Shown: piece by piece, positions 36,671 to 49,732 of the stretch | Numbering within the stretch: position 1 is the first letter of the stretch | How the letters are laid out: every line of letters begins with the position of its first letter | Origin: a bacterium | GTDB lineage: Bacteria; Margulisbacteria; Marinamargulisbacteria; GCA-2716485; JAYNIM01 | Length of the DNA stretch: 64,000 nucleotides | Assembly (NCBI GenBank): GCA_038109055.1 | Contig: JAYNIM010000002.1 | Span: forward strand, 79,759 to 143,758 | Reading direction: 5' to 3' | Translations under genes and position numbers: made by a program | Notes under the pieces: generated by a model | What the model saw: the letters and a program-made list of their open reading frames with translations, nothing else | Database searches by the model: none | Told to the model about the DNA's origin: nothing

Positions 36671-37471
36671 ATGATAAAAACCATACAAAAATATATTATA
36701 TTCTTATTAACACTAACTCTAACAACAAGCATAGCTTTTGCAGGCTGGGATACTTCTAGCTGGATTTATAATAATGGAACCCCAGGAGCTGGAACAGTAG
36801 CCAATGATTCAGAAGTAATTGAAGTAACAGCCTACATAGAAGAAGTAAGTACCCTAGAGTTAAAACCATCTACGGCATTTCATGGCGATGATAGCGGTAA
36901 CACATTCACACCATCAGTAGCATTAGGCGTCTTGGCTCTAGACTCTGAAACAAATCATCCCTACGCAATGATTGAGATACATAACAACAACCCAGTAGGA
37001 TATTCAATAAAAGTAGAATCAGCAGGAAATTGTAAACTTAAAAGAAAGTATTTTGATGGTAGCGCGTGGCAAGAATGGGCAACAAATTCTGACACAGATG
37101 CTAATTTTGCAGCAGGTAACGAAATAGCCTATACTATCTCAACTGAGATACTCGTAACAGGGGCTAATACGGGTGGCTCTCACACTGCCGCATCAGGATC
37201 TTATGATGGATCTAATGCGACTGCGCATGATTCAACAATGTCCGCGATTCATAAAGAAGGTGGAGCAAATAAACATAATCTAGAAGATATGTCTGCAGGA
37301 TCTGCCGGATCACATACCTTTAGCTATGTAGATGGAACTGGAACAGTCAACATCAAACATGGAACATACGGCAAAAGGATCACATTTTTTATGCACGCAA
37401 CTCCAACTAAAGCTAATTTAAGAGGTTTATATAGCGATACCATCACATTTACATTAATAGACGGAGCATAA
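36671..37471 (+). CDS. Secreted pilin-like subunit (putative major fimbrial protein)
   Basis: Signal peptide ending AFA; NNNPVGYSIKVES; C-terminal GLYSDTITFTL strand typical of chaperone-usher pilins; GGGGG RBS. Confidence 0.7.
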   Translation: MIKTIQKYIIFLLTLTLTTSIAFAGWDTSSWIYNNGTPGAGTVANDSEVIEVTAYIEEVSTLELKPSTAFHGDDSGNTFTPSVALGVLALDSETNHPYAMIEIHNNNPVGYSIKVESAGNCKLKRKYFDGSAWQEWATNSDTDANFAAGNEIAYTISTEILVTGANTGGSHTAASGSYDGSNATAHDSTMSAIHKEGGANKHNLEDMSAGSAGSHTFSYVDGTGTVNIKHGTYGKRITFFMHATPTKANLRGLYSDTITFTLIDGA

Positions 37472-37476
37472 AAAAA

Positions 37477-37505
37477 AGGTCTTATCCCCTTTGGGGATAA
37501 GACCT
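37477..37505. terminator. Bidirectional intrinsic terminator
   Basis: Perfect 13-bp stem AGGTCTTATCCCC-ttt-GGGGATAAGACCT between convergent pilin genes. Confidence 0.9.
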
Positions 37506-37509
37506 AAAA

Positions 37510-38163
37510 CTAATCTGAAAGAGTAATAACAAGTCTATCCTTATAATACCCTCTAAGTAATGCAGAATCTAAAACTGGGACATACGCCCAGAAATTTATT
37601 TTTTTATCCACTGTTGCTTCCTTAACCGTCCCCATTAAAGTACCATCATCCGTAAAAAGCATTACAAGGTCCGAAGTCAATTGCTTGCTCGGATAACTAC
37701 CTACAGCATATAAATAATGAGTCTCAATAGTGGTAGGCAAAACCTCATTTAAACCGGCATCTTGCAACCCCAATCGACCCTCGTTTGTTAATTCAAAAGA
37801 GACATAATACGGTACCTCGGCCCCCTTTCCATAGACCCAATCAGTCGTAGAATGATGGGCGTATTCTTTCCACTGACTCCCATCCCAATACTGCCTCAGC
37901 AAACGGCCAGAATTTTCACTATGGATAGTCACAGAAAACCCCCATGGGAAATTACATGAAACAATAAAAGCAAACAATTTTTGATAAACATCACTGTGAT
38001 TAATCTGACCTATATCCAATCCCCCTTGACTAGAATCTATAGATAAAGAATAGTCTGCTCGTACAGACCCCTTTAAAAGGGCTTCCTTTTCAAGGGTAAT
38101 CGAAAAACTAGTCGAAAAAAAAAGAAAATTTAGCAGAAAAACAAAAAATAAGGAATTTTTCAC
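37510..38163 (-). CDS. Secreted pilin-like subunit, paralog of 36671-37471
   Basis: Signal peptide; RQYWDGSQWKEYA matches RKYFDGSAWQEWA; C-terminal LRGYYKDRLVITL. Confidence 0.72.
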   Translation of the reverse strand: MKNSLFFVFLLNFLFFSTSFSITLEKEALLKGSVRADYSLSIDSSQGGLDIGQINHSDVYQKLFAFIVSCNFPWGFSVTIHSENSGRLLRQYWDGSQWKEYAHHSTTDWVYGKGAEVPYYVSFELTNEGRLGLQDAGLNEVLPTTIETHYLYAVGSYPSKQLTSDLVMLFTDDGTLMGTVKEATVDKKINFWAYVPVLDSALLRGYYKDRLVITLSD

Positions 38164-38209
38164 CCATCATTTATAGCATATTTTAAAAAAAAGAGATAGA
38201 ATAGTGATT

Positions 38210-38947
38210 ATGAAAAATATATTAGGTATTACTATATGTCTTTTACTATTAAGTGTACAAATCCTCGCGACAAATGCATCTCTTAGCAGAAAGGAAATCA
38301 ATATAGATTATAACAATTCAACAAAACTAATCTTAACAAACAAAGCAGACGAAATAAAAGCCTTTGAAATATCTCTATATGAACGTAATATAGATGAAAA
38401 AGGTCAAGACATAAAAGTCGACAGCGATATAGAAAATAATTTTTTAATCATTCCCTCTCAAGTAATCCTCTCTCCATTTGGTGAAGAAACCATCTCAATA
38501 ACCTATATAGGGGATAAAAATATTACAAAAGAAAAAGCCTATCATATACTTATAAAACAAATTGAAATTAATTTCGATGAAAACAATACTGAACTCATAC
38601 AAAGATCTAAAGATTCTTTATATGCAAAACTCACAGTCCTAACAAATTTAATAAAAAACATGTACCTTACTCAAAGTAATTTTGAACCCAAGCTAGAGAT
38701 TATCAATAAAAAAATAAATGACCGAACAATGGAAATTGAAATAAAGAATAGTGGCCAAAAACGCTTAATAATGGGGGGAGACAAGCCAAAACTGTTTTTT
38801 CTACTTAAAGATACAGATAATAACATTTTAAAATTCAGAGCCAAAACAGCCATATTATTACCAAACCAAACCTTTAAAAATATTATTGAAATACCAAAAT
38901 CTGTAAATTTAAAAGATCAAGACATTTCATGGGAATTTTCCCGTTAA
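38210..38947 (+). CDS. PapD-like periplasmic pilus chaperone
   Basis: Signal peptide; PSQVILSPFGEETISITYIG...EKAYHILIKQI; IKNSG; ILLPNQT. Confidence 0.75.
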   Translation: MKNILGITICLLLLSVQILATNASLSRKEINIDYNNSTKLILTNKADEIKAFEISLYERNIDEKGQDIKVDSDIENNFLIIPSQVILSPFGEETISITYIGDKNITKEKAYHILIKQIEINFDENNTELIQRSKDSLYAKLTVLTNLIKNMYLTQSNFEPKLEIINKKINDRTMEIEIKNSGQKRLIMGGDKPKLFFLLKDTDNNILKFRAKTAILLPNQTFKNIIEIPKSVNLKDQDISWEFSR

Positions 38948-41737
38948 ATTCACATTAAGATTTCTACAACCTTTTTTATCCTACTAATACCAATCTTCAC
39001 ATTTACCTTTCAAACAAAAACATACGCCCAAAACCAAACTCCTCCTCTTACAAATACCCCCCTTACCCCTGTAAATTCAGAAATAAATCAAGCAACAAAT
39101 CAACTCCCCCCCATCCAAACTCAAGAAAAAAATCCCCCTCAAACAAAGACTCAACCAGAAACAACTCAAACCTCCAATCCAGAAACACCTCAAACTTCGA
39201 ATACAGAAACAACTCAAACAAAACCTCCTTCTAAAAACACCGCTCGTCCCTTAACCAAAGAGGATTATTTAAAGATATTTAAAAAAGCATTTGGCAGTAC
39301 CCCAACTATACGTCAAACAAAAGAAATGGCTCACATTTATATCAACAACAGCAAACAAACTCCTCCCGTAAGAATCCTAACTGAAACATTAAACCCAAAC
39401 ATAAAAATTAAACACGAAGACATCATGAAAATTTTAATTAGGGTATTAAAAAAAGACGTTTTTAATCAACTAAACAAAAATTTACCTATAGATGAAGATA
39501 ACATGATAAACACAGAGGATTTAATCGCCTTAGGATTTAAAATAATTGAATCAAAAAAGCTAAACAAAATTAATCTACTAATACCTGAAAACAATTTGAA
39601 AAAAAAAGAAATAGAAATTAAGACCTCCTCTGCTACCTCCGAAACTGCATTAAGAAAAAAAATAGTCACAAAAGGAAAATACAGTAATTATACAAACATA
39701 ACAATCAAGACAAACTCAAACACCCTTGACAATACTGTCTCAAAAAACAATACGATTGCCTTTCAAGGCCTCTGTAATATTGATAATCTAAAATTACGAT
39801 ACTCAATCAAAAACACAGAAGAAAATACTAAATTACAAGGTGAAACACTGGCATTAATATGGGAAGAATTTAACTCATTCAACATTGAAATCGGTTATAT
39901 AAAAAAAAACCTGTCCTTTGCAAATAATATTAATAATACAATAGCTACAGGCATAGAAATTCGTTCAAAAAAACAACCCCAAAACAACCTGATAGATAAA
40001 ACCATCTCTGTTGACCAAGACAGTAACCTGAAACTCTTCATTAACAAAAAACAAATCGCAAACCTTTATGTAACAAAGGGAAGCACTCGCTTAACAAATA
40101 TTCCATTAACGTCGGGATTAAATAAACTAATTATCAAAAGTTTTGATAAAGATGGTAATTTATTATGGGAAAAAAAAAGTTATGAATTTAAGAATAAAAA
40201 TTCTCACTTTAAATGGATAGGCATAGAAAATTACAGCTTTTTTTTAAATTCAACAAATCAAACGAATACATCCCTTATAGGGTTAACTAGTATGTTTAAC
40301 CTAAATACCCCCTACACGCCTATTATGATATACAACAAAATCTATGAAGATAAAACAAATGAATTAAACTATAAATTTAATTTATATGAAAATACGACAT
40401 TTAAAAGTATCCATATAAACAAAAAAAACCTAAAAGTAAACTCAATTAGTTTATCAAGTAATTACCTCTTTGATAAAAAAACACCCTTCGTTAACAGCAT
40501 ATCTATAGGATCTAGCTTTAATAATAGCAACAATCTTGACACAGCTTCAAATACCAAAACATCCGCATTAACATCAACCCTATCCTTAAAAAAATATAAA
40601 GAGTTTAATCAATCCATATCATATAGCCAAAGCATTCGAAACGAAACAACAAACAAAAAATCAATGTCCCTATTTTATACCATTAATAAAGCAGGAAAAA
40701 AAAGAGAAACATTCTCGTACTCGAATAACCTAGGAATTGCTCTAAATAAAGAACCCTCCGAAGCTTTAAGTCTAAGCCTAACCTTACTAAATGAAGTCAA
40801 AATTAAGCAAAAAAATATCACCTATAGTTTATCCTTAAATAATAATAAATTAAAAGCCAACATTAATTTATTTTGGTATTTCTCAAAAGAAACAAAGTTA
40901 GAAACAACTATTTCAACCAAAGAAATACATAATAACTTTATACATAAAGACACTAAAAATAATTTTAGATTTAATGCAAATGCACAAATAGCATCCTTAA
41001 TTAATCTTAATGCAGGCTTTAGACATAATGATAAGAATATCAATACATCTGGAACATTTCGACAAACCCTTGGAAATTCTGATAGACAAGACACCTTATC
41101 ATTATTCACCCCTGTGGGGTCAATATTTTATGATTTTAATAATACAGAAGACAACCACAACTCTTCCTTAACGTTAACAACAGCCATTGGATTTGCAGAT
41201 GGACACTTCGCAGTAACAGACAAGATCAACAATAGTTTCTTAATCGTCAAACAAGATAAAAAAATAAAAAACACCTCTTTAATTGTAAACAATCAAGCAT
41301 TTAGCCTATTTAATACACACATCATTACCAATCTACAAAAAGAAAAAATAAATAACATATCCATTGAACTAAAAACCCCAGAAAGCTTACTCTTTTTAGA
41401 AAAAACAAATTACGATATCCCTATTAAAGAAAACAAAGGTGAAGTCCTTATCATTAATACGCAAGGAACAAATCTTGCAATCATTACTCTAAAAGACACA
41501 AATAAGCAACCATTAAGATACAAATATATCACTTACTATGAAAAAAATAAGCCCGAAAACAAAATTGACATACTATCGTCTAAAACAGGTAAAATACAAC
41601 TCGTTGGTATTAAAAAAAATACAACCTACATCATCGATTCAAACATACAGAAATTAAAACCAATAGAACTATTTATACCTAGAAATGTGAAAGGAATCTA
41701 CAAAGTACCTGAATTAATATTTAAGGAAAAGAAATGA
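38948..41737 (+). CDS. Outer-membrane usher-like protein (start uncertain; frame open from 38948)
   Basis: Frame of ORF 39326 is open upstream and encodes a signal peptide; plug-like LFINKKQI..LTNIPLTSGLNKL; beta-rich body; TAIGFADGHFAV..INNSFLIV. Confidence 0.7.
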   Translation: MHIKISTTFFILLIPIFTFTFQTKTYAQNQTPPLTNTPLTPVNSEINQATNQLPPIQTQEKNPPQTKTQPETTQTSNPETPQTSNTETTQTKPPSKNTARPLTKEDYLKIFKKAFGSTPTIRQTKEMAHIYINNSKQTPPVRILTETLNPNIKIKHEDIMKILIRVLKKDVFNQLNKNLPIDEDNMINTEDLIALGFKIIESKKLNKINLLIPENNLKKKEIEIKTSSATSETALRKKIVTKGKYSNYTNITIKTNSNTLDNTVSKNNTIAFQGLCNIDNLKLRYSIKNTEENTKLQGETLALIWEEFNSFNIEIGYIKKNLSFANNINNTIATGIEIRSKKQPQNNLIDKTISVDQDSNLKLFINKKQIANLYVTKGSTRLTNIPLTSGLNKLIIKSFDKDGNLLWEKKSYEFKNKNSHFKWIGIENYSFFLNSTNQTNTSLIGLTSMFNLNTPYTPIMIYNKIYEDKTNELNYKFNLYENTTFKSIHINKKNLKVNSISLSSNYLFDKKTPFVNSISIGSSFNNSNNLDTASNTKTSALTSTLSLKKYKEFNQSISYSQSIRNETTNKKSMSLFYTINKAGKKRETFSYSNNLGIALNKEPSEALSLSLTLLNEVKIKQKNITYSLSLNNNKLKANINLFWYFSKETKLETTISTKEIHNNFIHKDTKNNFRFNANAQIASLINLNAGFRHNDKNINTSGTFRQTLGNSDRQDTLSLFTPVGSIFYDFNNTEDNHNSSLTLTTAIGFADGHFAVTDKINNSFLIVKQDKKIKNTSLIVNNQAFSLFNTHIITNLQKEKINNISIELKTPESLLFLEKTNYDIPIKENKGEVLIINTQGTNLAIITLKDTNKQPLRYKYITYYEKNKPENKIDILSSKTGKIQLVGIKKNTTYIIDSNIQKLKPIELFIPRNVKGIYKVPELIFKEKK
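39158..39220 (+). repeat. 24-nt tandem repeat (ETTQTSNP) in usher N-terminal linker
   Basis: gaaacaactcaaacctccaatcca / gaaacacctcaaacttcgaataca / gaaacaactcaaaca. Confidence 0.8.
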
Positions 41738-42540
41738 AATATCTAATACTTATCTCCTGGTTAATTGGAAGTCTCAGCTATGGAACTCTACATCTACACA
41801 TTAAAGATACATTTACAATCGATATCCCGCCAATTAACACCTCTATCACAAAACAAGTGCCTTTATTAATCACGTTTTCTAATATAGAAGAAACCGAAAT
41901 TTTTATCTGTCTCTCTCAAGACAAAAAAAATGATCTCTATTTTCATGATATAAATTCAAATGAATTTAAAGAAAATAAAACAATCAATGAAAAATTAAAC
42001 TTAACCTCCTCATACTCAGCAACCCATATCAATAATACTCACTCATTCCAATACAAGTTACTCAATAATCAAGACACGCCGTTTACATTAAAATCTTTTT
42101 TATTAGCCATAAATAAAGACGATGTCATATCAGGCATCATCACAAAAGATGATATATCTCCAATAAACAGTCATTTCTATGTGAGTATCGATAATATCAA
42201 ACATATTCCCTCCGGAACATACACAGATATTTTCCGAGTGGACTTGTATAAAGGGAGCCTAACAAATAAACTTGACGCAGAACTAATAGAAAGTAAAAGC
42301 ATCAAACTCATATTCAACATCCCAAGCTATACAGAATCAATCATTGAAAAAATCAAAACAACAAAAAACAATCAAACGATATTTATACGCACTAACAGCA
42401 ATGAAAAAATAATAGCTGAATTCAGCTACACTTACAAAAACTCACAAAAATCTATTTTTTTAAATACAGCAAAAGAATCCCATATCATCCAAATACCCCT
42501 CAAAAGTACAGACCCAACTCTCACAATAAAAACACAATAA
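41734..42540 (+). CDS. Secreted protein, putative minor/tip pilin
   Basis: Signal peptide; IPSGTYTDIFRVDLY pilin-like strand; overlaps usher stop. Confidence 0.6.
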   Translation: MKYLILISWLIGSLSYGTLHLHIKDTFTIDIPPINTSITKQVPLLITFSNIEETEIFICLSQDKKNDLYFHDINSNEFKENKTINEKLNLTSSYSATHINNTHSFQYKLLNNQDTPFTLKSFLLAINKDDVISGIITKDDISPINSHFYVSIDNIKHIPSGTYTDIFRVDLYKGSLTNKLDAELIESKSIKLIFNIPSYTESIIEKIKTTKNNQTIFIRTNSNEKIIAEFSYTYKNSQKSIFLNTAKESHIIQIPLKSTDPTLTIKTQ

Positions 42541-42620: not shown

Positions 42621-43391
42621 ATGGATCCAACAGTCATTTTTGGTATTATCAGTGGTACCGCTCTATTAATATACGCAATTGGACTAGAAAACGTGATGAC
42701 CATGTTTGTAGATACAAACTCCTTATTAATTGTATTAGGCGGTACATTAGCTGCGACATGTATTCATTTCCCTATGTCACAACTTTCCAAAACAGTTCCT
42801 TGGCTAATGATAACCTTTGCAATGAAAAGAAAAGGCAATAAACATGTTATAGACGAATTTATTGAAGTTGCGACACAATACAAACGCGAAGGCCGAGTTG
42901 GGATGGGGAAGAATATCGACAAAATAAAGGATGGGTTCTTAAGAGATTCCGTTCAATTAATTATAGATAATGTCACCAAAGAAGAAATGCAAGAAATTTT
43001 AGATGCCAACATCAGCTACATGAAACGCCGCCATCAATTAGGCATCGATTTTTTTATGATGGTAGCCACATATTGCCCCAGCTTTGGCTTAGTTGGAACA
43101 TTAATCGGATTAATTGTCATGCTAGCAAAACTAGACGATCCTTCAGCAATTGGCCCCGCAATGGCAGTCGCCTTAATCACCACATTCTACGGTGCCTTAT
43201 TCGCAAACTTTTTATTTATGCCCTTTGCTGGAAGATTAGAAATCTCAAACGAAGAGGAACTATTACAAAAAAACATGCTCAAAGAAGGATTGGTCTGTCT
43301 ACTTGAAGGTCAATCAATTTTCATTATCCGAGAAAAAATGTCCATGGTCCTCTCACAAAAAGATAGAAAAAAAATGAATAAAAAAACATAA
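42621..43391 (+). CDS. motA: Flagellar-type stator subunit MotA/PomA
   Basis: LIVLGGTLAAT, PSFGLVGTLIGLIVML, DDPSAIGPAMAVALITTFYG. Confidence 0.93.
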   Translation: MDPTVIFGIISGTALLIYAIGLENVMTMFVDTNSLLIVLGGTLAATCIHFPMSQLSKTVPWLMITFAMKRKGNKHVIDEFIEVATQYKREGRVGMGKNIDKIKDGFLRDSVQLIIDNVTKEEMQEILDANISYMKRRHQLGIDFFMMVATYCPSFGLVGTLIGLIVMLAKLDDPSAIGPAMAVALITTFYGALFANFLFMPFAGRLEISNEEELLQKNMLKEGLVCLLEGQSIFIIREKMSMVLSQKDRKKMNKKT

Positions 43392-44260: not shown

Positions 44261-45712
44261 ATGGAAATATTAGACGATAATAATAATATAAACAAAGAAC
44301 CAACCAACACCACGCCTAACAATAGTGGCGATAAAGAAACTATACCTCCTTCTCAAACAAACAAAATAGTCAAAGATCTTAGCATACAACAATCTAAATT
44401 AAAGAAAATAAAAAATCTTCTAAAAACTTGGAGCGCACATCAAAGAAAGAATATTATATGGGGATTTATTATCGTAAGTGCTCTTAGCGTACTCATAGTA
44501 AACATCCTTCAAGACAAAAAAATTACATTATCAAATTTGGAGAGGGCTGATGAAAGACTCTTAATACAGCGACAACGTCTATTAGAAACACAAATCAAAA
44601 ACGAAATGTCTCATAGCCTAGAAAAAATGTTCGGTCCAAACAATTTCCATGTTGGGGTTATTGCCTTCTTCAGTCTTGTAAATGAAAAAAACAAAGATAT
44701 CTCATACAACCCAAATATAGTCACTATTAACCATGAAATGTACGACAGCTCCCATGAAACAGCTCACCCAGGTCATGAAAAATTATTAGCAATAGCAAGT
44801 CAAAACAACAGACAAAAAATTGAAGAAAATACAATAAATGAACTTCCTGGCATATTTCAAAATATTAACAGATTACCTCAACAAAGTAACCTACCCCAAC
44901 GAATAAATACAACAGAACCTAACACAGAAAACACAAGCTTATTAGATCAAGCAACTGACATAGAACTACCTGGCTTTGAAAATATAAATTTCCAATCTCT
45001 AACAACCCCGTACACATCAGAAACAACCCAAGCCCCCCAATTAATGGAAGAAGGAATAGAAGAAACACATGACGAAAAACAATCCATTCATAAGTTATTC
45101 CAAAATCCAAAAAAAATAGTTAAAACAGAAAAAAAGAAAAATAAAATTATTATGAATCAGACTATATCTATCTCAGAACAACCAAAAGTAAAATTTGAAA
45201 ATTTATATATCTCAGTAGTCATCAATAAAACCATCACAGACAAATTTAACATAAAAGAAAAAGATTTAAGTCGATTTTTAGAAGTCATGGGAGGTATTAA
45301 TCAAACACGTGGAGATAGGTTTAATCTCTCAATTATTCCTTTCAGGGAACAAGTCATAGATATGAGAAGTGCAGGAATTAAAACAAGAAAATTTTTCAAT
45401 AACATTCCTATTTGGGTCTATATCCCTTTATTTGTAATGATCCCATTAGGAATTTTCTTAAAACCCCCCCTATTAAGTCTACTAAAAAATAAAAAGGCAA
45501 AAAAAGAAGAACAAGAAAAAGTAATCCTCTTAGAAAAACAACTTCAAGAAGAAAAACAAATACAAGAGGAAAAAGAATGGAATGAAAAAAGAACCGAAAT
45601 ATTAGAGATGGCACAAAAAAACCCCGAAACCATGGCAAATATTTTATTAGACTGGACTGAACAAGAACTTTCTAATAAAGAAGAAACCCCAGAAACTGAA
45701 AAAGGAGACTAA
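44261..45712 (+). CDS. FliF-like ring protein (RBM3/C-terminal part only)
   Basis: LEKMFGPNNFHVGV, ISVVIN, GGINQTRGDRFNLSIIPF, second TM, C-terminal AQKNPETMANILLDW. Confidence 0.8.
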   Translation: MEILDDNNNINKEPTNTTPNNSGDKETIPPSQTNKIVKDLSIQQSKLKKIKNLLKTWSAHQRKNIIWGFIIVSALSVLIVNILQDKKITLSNLERADERLLIQRQRLLETQIKNEMSHSLEKMFGPNNFHVGVIAFFSLVNEKNKDISYNPNIVTINHEMYDSSHETAHPGHEKLLAIASQNNRQKIEENTINELPGIFQNINRLPQQSNLPQRINTTEPNTENTSLLDQATDIELPGFENINFQSLTTPYTSETTQAPQLMEEGIEETHDEKQSIHKLFQNPKKIVKTEKKKNKIIMNQTISISEQPKVKFENLYISVVINKTITDKFNIKEKDLSRFLEVMGGINQTRGDRFNLSIIPFREQVIDMRSAGIKTRKFFNNIPIWVYIPLFVMIPLGIFLKPPLLSLLKNKKAKKEEQEKVILLEKQLQEEKQIQEEKEWNEKRTEILEMAQKNPETMANILLDWTEQELSNKEETPETEKGD

Positions 45713-45713
45713 A

Positions 45714-46805
45714 GTGGCAAAGAAAAAAGAAATAGTTAAAGAGAAAGAGCAAGAAACAGAAACACAAAGCCAACAATCAAGCTTAGAAAAAGTAGCCATG
45801 TTACTCCTCTATCTTGAAGCAATTTCGCCACAAACAACCAAAGCAATCTACGAACATATAGGAGAAGAAGTCTCCCAAAAAATATTAAACACTATCGCAA
45901 GTTTAGGGAACATAAATAAAACTAAACTAAAACCCATTATAAACGAAGCTCACAATATTTTAGTGGCACAAAACAATATTATTGGAGGACGAAACCTGTC
46001 AGGTAAAATAATTAAAACAATTTTTGGTGATCAAATAAAGGATAACGTAGAAGAAAATAAAAAAAGTAAAGGAAAAGCCTTCGCTTTTTTACAAGACTTT
46101 TCTAATGAAAAATTAATATTATTTTTCGAAGATAATTCCGAAGCAATGGCTGCATTTCTGTTTTCGTTACTATCACAAGACAAAGCCGCAAGTCTCATCC
46201 CATTATTAAAGCAAGAAAAAGCACAACGTATCATGGAAAAGGCCCTTCATTTAAAAATAAATAACATCCCTATTTTATATGAATTAGAAGAAGAATTAAA
46301 AAAAGAATTTTCAAAAACTGAAACAGGTATTCAATTAAAACCAAAAAAACAAATTCAACATTTAACCCAAGTGTTAGAAATGCTAGAAGAAAATCAACGC
46401 ACGGCAATTTTAGAAGAAATGAAAAAAACAAACAAAGAAATTGCAGAACAAATTGAACAAAACATTTTTACATTCCCAGATTTAATAAACTGCAGCGAAG
46501 AAGACATAGCGCAAATTGTAGCAGACATAAAAAATGTAAAAGCATTGGCCTTTGCCACCCATACCTGTGACGAAAAATTAAAAGAAAAATTACTAAATAA
46601 TATCTCTGCACGACAAAAAGAAATTTTAGATGACGAACTAAAAACAATGCCTGAAAACGTAAAAGAAAAAGATATTACAAGCTCACAAAAAGAAATTTTA
46701 AGCATCGCAAGAAAATTAGAAAAAGAAGAAAAAATAGAACCTTTAAGCAAAGGATCAGAAGGAAAAGATAGCAAAGAAAAAAAGGACAAAAGTAAAAAAG
46801 GATAA
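45714..46805 (+). CDS. fliG: FliG-like rotor protein
   Basis: EKVAMLLLYL, IGGRNL, IFTFPDL, NISARQKEILDDEL, SQKEILSIARKLE. Confidence 0.85.
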   Translation: MAKKKEIVKEKEQETETQSQQSSLEKVAMLLLYLEAISPQTTKAIYEHIGEEVSQKILNTIASLGNINKTKLKPIINEAHNILVAQNNIIGGRNLSGKIIKTIFGDQIKDNVEENKKSKGKAFAFLQDFSNEKLILFFEDNSEAMAAFLFSLLSQDKAASLIPLLKQEKAQRIMEKALHLKINNIPILYELEEELKKEFSKTETGIQLKPKKQIQHLTQVLEMLEENQRTAILEEMKKTNKEIAEQIEQNIFTFPDLINCSEEDIAQIVADIKNVKALAFATHTCDEKLKEKLLNNISARQKEILDDELKTMPENVKEKDITSSQKEILSIARKLEKEEKIEPLSKGSEGKDSKEKKDKSKKG

Positions 46806-46826: not shown

Positions 46827-47501
46827 ATGAAAGACACTAAAGAAGAACAATTAACTGCAACTGAAATATATCGGAATTTAGCATTATACACAGCTGACTT
46901 CATATCCATTAATTTTGCGATACCTTTTGATTTAACCAATATTGAAGAAAAAAAAGTAACCTATGAAGAATTTGTCAAACAAGCAGGTTCACTCAGCTAC
47001 ACTAGCCTATTTAATATTTGTGGCCTCCCTTTTTTAGGGTGCATCAATCAAAAAATAATAATCAATCTAAATAACATAATGCTAGGAACCCCAGAAGAAA
47101 TGAAAGAAAGCAAAAAAGAAAACGAAGACGAAGAAGAAAATCTATTAACAGTTGGCCAAAAATTTGTAGGTAAAACACTAAGTACCTGTATAACCAACAA
47201 CATGAAACAACACTATCCATGCAATTTTTTAAAGTCACAAGAAAAATTATCATTATTCAAAATATTTTTTAACAACGATAAAGTCTTAACATTTAACATG
47301 ACAGCAAAAATAAACGACGAAGATATGGGAACATTATCATTTTGCCACATAGAAAATTTTTTCGATTTACTCCCGAATAAATTAGAACAAGAACGGTCTA
47401 GAGAAACAAACACTGAATCCAATGAAAATACAAAAGATGAAGATGAAACAAATACTGAATCCAATATCAATATAAAAGATGAAGATGAAACAAAAAAATA
47501 A
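46827..47501 (+). CDS. FliM middle (CheC-like) domain only protein
   Basis: EIYRNLA...VTYEEFVKQ...NIMLG...LTVGQ pattern; follows fliG; lacks N-terminal LSQxEID and C-terminal SpoA. Confidence 0.6.
   Translation: MKDTKEEQLTATEIYRNLALYTADFISINFAIPFDLTNIEEKKVTYEEFVKQAGSLSYTSLFNICGLPFLGCINQKIIINLNNIMLGTPEEMKESKKENEDEEENLLTVGQKFVGKTLSTCITNNMKQHYPCNFLKSQEKLSLFKIFFNNDKVLTFNMTAKINDEDMGTLSFCHIENFFDLLPNKLEQERSRETNTESNENTKDEDETNTESNINIKDEDETKK
47403..47493 (+). repeat. 42-nt tandem duplication (ETNTESNxNxKDED)
   Basis: Two copies at 47403 and 47445 plus a partial third. Confidence 0.9.
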
Positions 47502-48511: not shown

Positions 48512-49732
48512 ATGAAAAAAATAATCGTCATCTGTTTGATCATATTACAAATAACCATTAACAAAGAACTATTAGCTGCAGCCTTTGGGCCAGCAAAGTC
48601 TCTAATCAATGTCCCTATCGCAGAATACTTCATACCCGGAGATCTAGAGTTCTCTACCAATGCTGGGTTTGGATCCATGCAAAATTTAGAATTCGATTTC
48701 AAGTTTCAATATAGCCTCACAAAAAAAATTAATATAGGGGCAACAATCATCAATTATCATCAAATGGTATTCAATGCACAAACAACCTTTGTAACATTAA
48801 GTGACCCCTTTCCTATCACAATTTCTGCCGGCATACTAAACTTATCGTCTAAACTAGATTTGAGTGATTGGGATAATGAAACAGCACAAAAAATACATAA
48901 TTTAGGTCACTTTATTGTATGCAGCTTACCTAAAAAAGCCTATACCTTACACATCGGCTTAGGCAAAAAAAAATATCGAACAGAATCAATCAACTCAACA
49001 CTAGAAGAAGCCTCAAGTGCATTTATAGGCACCTTATTTTTTGGAATAGAAAAATCAATCAAGAATGGATCATTAATGGCAGAATTCGATGGTAGTTATA
49101 TGAACGTTGGCTATAGAAAAAAGTTAACAAAAAAAACCACAGGAAGTGCAGCATTAACAGAGTTTGGAAATACTGGCAAAGATGCCCCTGTACGATTTCT
49201 ATCCTTCAATATCAAAACAGCTAAAAACATCTTTGAGGCTTACAAAGAAGAAGTAGAGTATGTACAGAAAAACCTAACAATCATCGAAGACATCTCATTA
49301 AACTTAAAAGAAACCGAAAAAAAACTAAAAAAAGAATTAATTAACACACAAAAAATTAAAGAAGCCTTATTAAAAAAAGTAAATGAAAATCCTTCAGAAA
49401 AAAAAATAAATAGAAAAGACCCTCTTCAAATGTACTCAAACAACTACATTCAAGCCTACAAACATTACGAAGACTCATTTAATAGTTTTAATCAACAAAA
49501 TTACTTAAGTGTTTTAGAATCACTGACTAAAGCAATACAAGCAGCCCCTGATGTTCCCATATTTTACAGACAGCGTGGCACAGTGTATTACATAATAAAA
49601 CAAGAAGAAAATGCTCTCCTTGACTGGACAACTGCCTATGAACTAAACCCCAGAGACCCAGAACTATTAAAGTTACCAAAATCAGTGTTAACTGAAATCA
49701 TTTCACGCGTAAAAACCTATCCACTAGAGTGA
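48512..49732 (+). CDS. Secreted beta-barrel-like (YjbH-like) + coiled coil + TPR protein
   Basis: Signal peptide; LINVPIAE; FFGIEK..LMAEFDGSYMNVGYR; TPR FYRQRGTVYY..ALLDWTTAYELNP. Confidence 0.72.
   Translation: MKKIIVICLIILQITINKELLAAAFGPAKSLINVPIAEYFIPGDLEFSTNAGFGSMQNLEFDFKFQYSLTKKINIGATIINYHQMVFNAQTTFVTLSDPFPITISAGILNLSSKLDLSDWDNETAQKIHNLGHFIVCSLPKKAYTLHIGLGKKKYRTESINSTLEEASSAFIGTLFFGIEKSIKNGSLMAEFDGSYMNVGYRKKLTKKTTGSAALTEFGNTGKDAPVRFLSFNIKTAKNIFEAYKEEVEYVQKNLTIIEDISLNLKETEKKLKKELINTQKIKEALLKKVNENPSEKKINRKDPLQMYSNNYIQAYKHYEDSFNSFNQQNYLSVLESLTKAIQAAPDVPIFYRQRGTVYYIIKQEENALLDWTTAYELNPRDPELLKLPKSVLTEIISRVKTYPLE

Follow-up and report, generated by a model that had tools for sequence, protein, structure and literature searches.

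The window, by which we mean the whole 64,000-nucleotide stretch of DNA that was analysed, carries a cluster of seven genes in the order motA-motB-fliF-fliG-fliM (middle domain only)-barrel/TPR-barrel/TPR. Upstream of it lie five genes which, on weak, profile-level evidence, look like an archaic (Csu-like) chaperone-usher system, and the last of these, an SCPU-domain gene, ends 80 bp before motA. The genes are listed here with the basis of each assignment.

36671..37471, + strand: probable pilin; no family match, assigned because its start resembles a signal peptide, 37510-38163 is a paralogue and such genes recur beside ushers
37510..38163, - strand: second probable pilin; paralogue of 36671..37471 (E 4e-13)
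38204..38947, + strand: chaperone of an archaic pilus; CsuC is matched by the family profile (E 0.002) and PapD_N by homologues
39326..41737, + strand: usher-family outer-membrane protein; no Pfam match of its own, PF00577 being matched by 3 of 8 aligned homologues (E 8e-8 at best)
41734..42540, + strand: pilus subunit or tip with an SCPU (Csu-type) domain; assigned from homologues in loci L098 and L106 that match SCPU
42621..43391, + strand: stator subunit of the MotA/PomA type, 256 aa; keeps the transmembrane motifs, has other residues at the acidic torque positions in the cytoplasmic loop
43393..44202, + strand: MotB, 269 aa; has a plug, the conserved Asp in the membrane (D13) and a wall-binding domain of the OmpA type
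44261..45712, + strand: RBM3-only FliF, 483 aa; profile, AlphaFold model, Foldseek and hydropathy
45714..46805, + strand: FliG of full length; Pfam cut-offs exceeded by each of its N, M and C domains
46827..47501, + strand: FliM middle domain alone, 224 aa; family members match PF02154
47479..48510, + strand: barrel-TPR protein A; start resembling a signal peptide, predicted outer-membrane barrel that is a paralogue of B, TPR at the C-terminus
48512..49732, + strand: barrel-TPR protein B; predicted barrel, 52-residue helix, C-terminal TPR

A strong 13-bp stem-loop, likely a terminator, lies between the two convergent pilin-like genes at window positions 37477-37505. A scan for promoters and terminators gave counts at chance level (48 vs 55 and 11 vs 7.9).

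The RBM3-only ring protein

The first-pass annotation had read the product of 44261..45712 as a FliF-like protein lacking RBM1 and RBM2. The open reading frame is intact, without an internal stop, and its product was confirmed as a homologue of FliF, with RBM3 following TM1 directly. A profile built from 14 homologues aligned with residues 223-558 of Salmonella FliF (6SCN) at an E value of 2.5e-22 and skipped both RBM1 and RBM2, the domain limits of Salmonella FliF being 60-124, 125-215 and 228-438 in the accessible text of PMC11739650; an extra TM1 piece on 6SCN residues 36-62 was non-significant. In a Pfam search the protein showed no match to YscJ_FliF (PF01514, RBM1+RBM2), as had been expected, while the YscJ_FliF_C match that had also been expected was present below threshold (E 0.0013, 19.6 bits, under the 23.8 cut-off).

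Hydropathy analysis placed TM1 at aa 65-83, in agreement with the earlier reading, and TM2 near 378-396. The RBM3 entry helix motif begins at aa 105, 22 residues past TM1, close to the distance of about 20 first estimated. The protein thus consists of a cytoplasmic N-terminus, TM1, the RBM3a helix, a β-collar with a disordered loop (aa 163-286), RBM3b, TM2, a coiled helix and a tail predicted to bind FliG. That TM2 and this tail are kept, as had been claimed, is borne out by hydropathy and by a profile match running through 6SCN residue 558. The AlphaFold model (mean pLDDT 65.6; RBM3 core 80-94) has a helix at 96-124, strands at 129-162 and 287-322, helices at 323-344 and a strand at 353-359, so that a split RBM with a collar is predicted, and 18 of 18 Foldseek matches at E<=0.001 were FliF/MS-ring entries. 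What had been described as a long low-complexity insert is the β-collar itself, two long strands with a 124-residue low-confidence loop between them; nowhere is the family more conserved than at the two LPG motifs noticed in it.

The missing domains were not found elsewhere in the window. A profile of RBM1-2 built from the phylum's own FliFs gave nothing in its six frames (best domain E 0.46), so no frameshifted or upstream segment encodes them, and the gap between the motB stop and the fliF start codon is just 58 bp. PF01514 is matched once in the same genome, on another contig. Homologues with the same deletion were found: the RBM3-only architecture is present in 54 of 54 aligned members, none of which matched the RBM1-2 profile, with a TM1-to-RBM3 spacing of 27-51 aa (48 members with a called TM) and YscJ_FliF_C at E<=0.1 in 53 of 54. 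Identity among homologues is 16-24%, the closest one aside. The window protein by itself is a new FliF variant.

In Salmonella the S-ring and collar consist of RBM3 alone, and contact with FliP/FliR is made through RBM2, according to the accessible parts of PMC11739650 and bioRxiv 10.1101/2021.09.23.461508. Formation of a hollow ring by the window protein is therefore well supported by analogy, and such a ring would be without export-gate housing, as the first-pass annotation had proposed. Its two further suggestions, that the ring is rotated and that the lumen may hold another partner, are inferences.

Two shortened relatives of FliF invite comparison. SpoIIIAG (5WC3), of the Bacillus/Clostridium sporulation channel, had been cited as a precedent, and in architecture the likeness stands, with a single split RBM and a β-insert after one TM (accessible text of PMC4768692). 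Membership of that family, however, was rejected: the Foldseek match is non-significant (E 0.58, rank 21), the window FliF has two TMs, and its neighbours are not of the spoIIIA type. SpoIIIAG is not known to have a second TM, a FliG tail or a stator. The chlamydial FliF-FliG fusion is likewise a shortened FliF in a non-flagellated bacterium and a natural fusion, but with the opposite deletion, keeping RBM2 and lacking the SpoIIIAG-like domain; as the chlamydial flagellar genes given in the accessible text of that source (PMC4768692) are FliF, FliL and FlhA only, it would have no stator.

Motor genes, flagellar genes and the distribution of the module

The conserved membrane Asp of MotB is present in all 36 of the alignment rows listed (18 caught by a regular expression, the rest by eye). 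The Arg and acidic pair of the FliG torque helix, whose roles are taken from the accessible text of PMC7564593, align with those of flagellar FliG in the window protein and in most module FliGs. The window MotA keeps the basic torque residue and has Gly-Lys at the acidic-pair positions of solved MotA/PomA, positions that vary widely among module MotAs. Placement of the window FliG was not resolved in the FliG tree. The window FliM is without the N-terminal CheY-binding part and without the C-terminal SPOA domain; this copy has no Pfam match itself, while 13 of 18 family members match PF02154. The window copies have the contact motifs of FliG-M and FliM in degenerate form, though many relatives keep them. 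Barrel B was modelled with about 12-13 strands, followed by the 52-residue helix and a TPR head; by language-model features it is nearest to YjbH-like clusters (0.94), and its fold resembles the FapF, invasin and OMPLA barrels and, weakly, PorV (6h3i_F).

Set against the flagellar torque core (FliF, FliG/FliM and MotA5B2 or PomA5B2; Salmonella 6SCN, Vibrio 8Z4D), the module shares RBM3 with its β-collar, two TM helices, the FliG-binding tail, a full FliG, the FliM middle domain and MotA/MotB with the conserved Asp. Unlike the flagellum, its locus is without RBM1/RBM2, export gate, rod, FliE, L/P rings and FliN, its FliM is cut to the middle domain, and it has two barrel-TPR partners not known from flagella. 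Several paralogous modules occur per genome, and in the genome that holds the window the export and rod genes go with another FliF.

The genome from which the window comes (G000; 1.8 Mb, 22 contigs, 93% complete), probably of the class Marinamargulisbacteria in the phylum Margulisbacteria, holds three motor modules, each with its own MotA/MotB and TPR partner. The second (G000:C1:38152-43247) comprises a 319-aa RBM3-only FliF, a divergent FliG that sits in a separate clade of 8 FliGs, MotA, MotB, a FliM-like protein and one barrel-TPR protein. The third (G000:C2:148011-152051), widespread in the class, has a TPR protein, a 475-aa RBM3-TM-FliG(M,C) fusion, MotA and MotB. Flagellin and CheW were not found in this genome, and ORFs from the hook and filament regions in two flagellated relatives, labelled by position, N-terminal motifs and Flagellin_N matches, had no counterpart in its proteome. 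An assembly gap is an unlikely explanation for the missing flagellin, as flagellin was found in 1 of 55 class genomes and FlgD, the hook cap, in none of the 55. Across 146 genomes of the phylum, PF01514 is matched in 132, FliG_C in 64 and flagellin in 15, and in flagellated relatives the module is present beside a complete flagellum.

A separate cluster in G000 encodes an RBM1/2-bearing FliF together with FliE, the rod, the L and P rings, the export gate and the ATPase. This hookless basal body, also without a filament (G000:C1:510916-521624, loci L006 and L007, and C2:189162-197090, locus L008) occurs in 132 of the 146 phylum genomes, and flagellated relatives have both such a body and a true flagellum. 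The FliG beside the export-type FliF is without FliG_C, the torque domain. Across the collar, the span is 27 aa in the export-type FliF of G000 and a median of 32 aa in 24 hookless-type FliFs, 95 aa in 11 of 12 flagellar FliFs and 191 in the window protein; one FliF has thus kept RBM1/2 and lost the collar, the other has lost RBM1/2 and kept the collar, and their deletions are complementary. In 76 genomes of more distant classes, an RBM1/2 FliF was found in 68 and any FliG_C in only 6, so the export-type basal body exists without a motor, which argues for separate machines. Orphan FlgF/FlgG-like rod paralogues lie off the basal-body cluster, at G000:C1:261928-262737 and C8:72214-73077.

The gene set of the module is conserved across Margulisbacteria. 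Among 27 homologous loci, picked from the best search matches, kin to one another and in several cases cut by contig or flank ends, we counted FliG in 25, barrel-TPR proteins in 23, FliM in 19, MotA in 18 and MotB in 16, and 10 queries for export, rod, ring, FliE and FliN gave no match in any of the 27. FliF and FliG are naturally fused in L091, L094, L104 and L105, and single-TM RBM3-FliG fusions are found in another module subtype. In L123 and L124 a TPR stands in frame ahead of RBM3-TM-FliG in one polypeptide (L123:4750-7485, L124:4737-7304), which ties the TPR head to the ring; a fusion of the barrel to FliF-FliG was considered for these proteins and rejected, the shared part being the TPR, with SLH ahead of it in L123. 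Other clades' modules adjoin Ig/PKD/Kelch/CHU_C proteins of 1500-1950 aa and TraF_2/Toluene_X (PorV-like) barrels. A scan of named genomes with a narrow alignment of three sequences gave only 2 loci, both already in the set. In the Atlas, PF08345-only and FliG-fusion clusters with members from Fidelibacterota and Balneolota (TM under 0.5) serve as leads only.

Several loci depart from this pattern. The OmpA-like domain of MotB is replaced by LysM at L110:8637-9350, L111:5307-6020 and L118:5350-6087, the Pfam evidence coming from L110 only. A 7-kb contig (L136:1855-6506) carries, repeated in tandem, a TPR gene plus a short gene for RBM3 only (269-272 aa), and has neither FliG nor a stator. A fliG-fliM pair stands alone at L125:6558-8281, L127:3526-5240 and L128:6508-8210, apart from the pilus-linked fliF and barrels in G009 and with no fliF nearby in G011 and G013. 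L107:7289-8656 encodes 455 aa with a full FliG (N, M, C) after a 139-aa N-terminal part; it groups with true flagellar FliG and adjoins an FlgD_ig/CHU_C-tailed protein in a genome without flagellin. In L043 (G002:C63) an RBM3-only fliF is broken by a frameshift or stops, which may be an assembly error.

Association with chaperone-usher genes

Archaic chaperone-usher pili such as Acinetobacter Csu resemble the upstream genes in the CsuC-like chaperone, the usher and the SCPU-domain subunit directly upstream of the module, with weak scores that come from profiles and homologues only. In a tree of concatenated FliF and barrel sequences from 17 modules, the modules of the window, G009, G032 and G049, which represent four families, formed one clade (support 100/98). 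In G009, G032 and G049, chaperone-usher genes stand interleaved among those of the module, in differing orders. The sister of this clade is the module of G022, which was scored as unlinked when the tree was built; afterwards its barrel gene proved to have an usher gene at a distance of 267 bp. Support for the five-module clade was 83/81, or 86 after two long branches were dropped, and the clade was not starred. All five modules of the window's clade adjoin an usher gene.

Nine of the 14 ushers seen in the class had no module gene in the examined flanks, some of which were cut by contig ends, and 23 of 27 tallied modules had no usher; usher counts are lower bounds, since a single-protein usher search missed those of G009 and G022. 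Linked ushers did not form one clade in the usher trees, yet such a clade was not rejected (p-AU 0.25 and 0.16). Common inheritance of a single gene island could account for the pilus link without any function. To our knowledge chaperone-usher assembly needs no energy source, and we know of no motor for any chaperone-usher system. A search of titles and abstracts found no chaperone-usher operon with a motor. Fimbria-like tubules are described on a Marinamargulisbacteria symbiont of Trichoplax in the accessible text of PMC6784892.

A proposed machine and its alternatives

Torque genes in the absence of flagellin, together with barrels and pilus genes, point to a likely undescribed motor with a target at the cell surface other than a flagellum. 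Function is read here from gene context only, and the elements of the proposal are graded separately. The module is very probably a machine separate from the export basal body, and its ring probably does rotate; that the motor acts on a pilus is a tentative suggestion. Chances are even that the whole is a self-contained rotor driven by ions, linked to the outer membrane by barrel-TPR stalks and acting on a surface appendage.

It is known that the FliF tail co-folds with FliG-N and that MotA5B2 turns FliG-C. In the proposed machine, the RBM3-only FliF would polymerise into an S-ring and collar with no export gate, and this ring, if it assembles in vivo, would be the rotor of a MotA/MotB-FliG motor. 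FliG and the FliM middle domain would form a thin C-ring with no FliN and no CheY input, and the motor may accordingly turn in one direction only. The likely partners of the ring are the two downstream barrel-TPR proteins, each of which would extend a TPR head on a long helix through the periplasm to meet the collar. The load may be an adhesive structure anchored in the outer membrane, most likely a Csu-like pilus in the window's clade, and giant adhesins with PorV-like barrels in other clades, and the appendage might be turned or hauled for surface motility or particle handling.

A motor could also work on the outer membrane without moving any appendage, energising transport or assembly (adhesin or pilin export, or polymer extrusion through the empty lumen) in the style of the type IX motor or of Ton/Tol. 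The YjbH-like features of barrel B and its likeness to FapF, invasin, OMPLA and, weakly, PorV agree with this, as do the PorV-like barrels and CHU_C-tailed giant proteins adjoining other modules and a free lumen, the inner width of the Salmonella collar being about 100 Å in the accessible text of PMC11739650. We nevertheless consider it unlikely, as the nine ushers without module genes in the examined flanks indicate that pili of this family can probably assemble in the absence of the motor, genes for polysaccharide synthesis were not seen (by eye) to recur among the module loci listed, and a large FliG ring with FliM would seem to exceed the needs of Ton-type pulling. The Bacteroidota type IX/gliding motor (GldLM, GldKN ring, PorV, SprB) has an ion-driven 5:2 motor, a periplasmic ring, outer-membrane barrels and giant adhesins. 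It serves as a working analogy only, with PorV-like and CHU_C-tailed neighbours occurring in other module clades. The stator and ring of the module are flagellar homologues and not GldLM/GldKN.

The ring may instead be fixed to the cell wall, with MotA/MotB pushing FliG to generate tension, to move barrels in short strokes or to sense load. SLH lies inside the collar loop of an 825-aa FliF-FliG fusion (L104:5794-8271, E 1.7e-10; L105:7509-9983, E 5.7e-8) and was detected at the N-terminus of L123 (SLH-TPR-RBM3-FliG), and a ring bound to the wall through SLH could not spin freely. MotB itself is wall-binding through OmpA, or LysM in L110, and the MotA charges are degenerate. SLH, however, is found in few lineages and was absent from the window protein in the Pfam search, and the charges of the FliG torque helix are conserved, which makes a static ring quite unlikely.

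The complementary deletions in the two FliFs of G000 (collar span 27 vs 191 aa) and the FliG without FliG_C beside the export-type FliF would also suit co-assembly of the two into one mixed MS ring, the module then being a detachable motor for the hookless body; the inner ring in Salmonella uses only 23 of 34 RBM2 domains (PMC11739650, accessible text). This we regard as very unlikely, given that 68 of the 76 distant-class genomes have an RBM1/2 FliF and only 6 have any FliG_C, that three modules per genome have their own outer-membrane partners, and that basal-body genes occur in none of the 27 module loci. A decaying remnant of a lost flagellum, suggested by the low identity (16-24% outside the closest homologue), the frameshifted copy in G002 and split or partial modules in G011, G013 and G014, is largely refuted and highly improbable in view of intact frames, fixed architecture, a gene set conserved across classes, invariant motifs, the conserved MotB Asp, gene fusions and coexistence with a complete flagellum in flagellated relatives.

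We found no description of the module by title or abstract, in a literature coverage that leaves out most subscription journals. The main text of PMC6349859, as far as accessible, contains no occurrence of flagell, motil, pili, MotA or FliG; its supplements may list such genes. On genomic evidence the module is real, conserved and not a flagellum, and the machine fits no described kind that we found.

A broader reading is that in Marinamargulisbacteria an ancestral flagellum split into a hookless, collar-less secretion body and free motors, and that in the window's clade the motor grips the outer membrane through barrel-TPR stalks to spin or haul a chaperone-usher pilus. We think this possible, if rather unlikely; if true, it would mean a chaperone-usher appendage driven by a motor, the first of its kind, and a motility organelle of a new type. 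FliF, FliG and MotA/MotB have so far been treated as parts of the flagellum only. A torque core without export gate, rod and filament would be a further ion-driven machine of the cell envelope, beside the flagellum, Ton/Tol and the type IX motor, and as a natural minimal rotor of seven genes it is open to expression and imaging. It also bears on the origin of the flagellum, as the motor and secretion halves are here distinct sets of genes whose FliF and FliG carry complementary deletions. Annotation of motA, motB or fliG in such genomes does not imply swimming.
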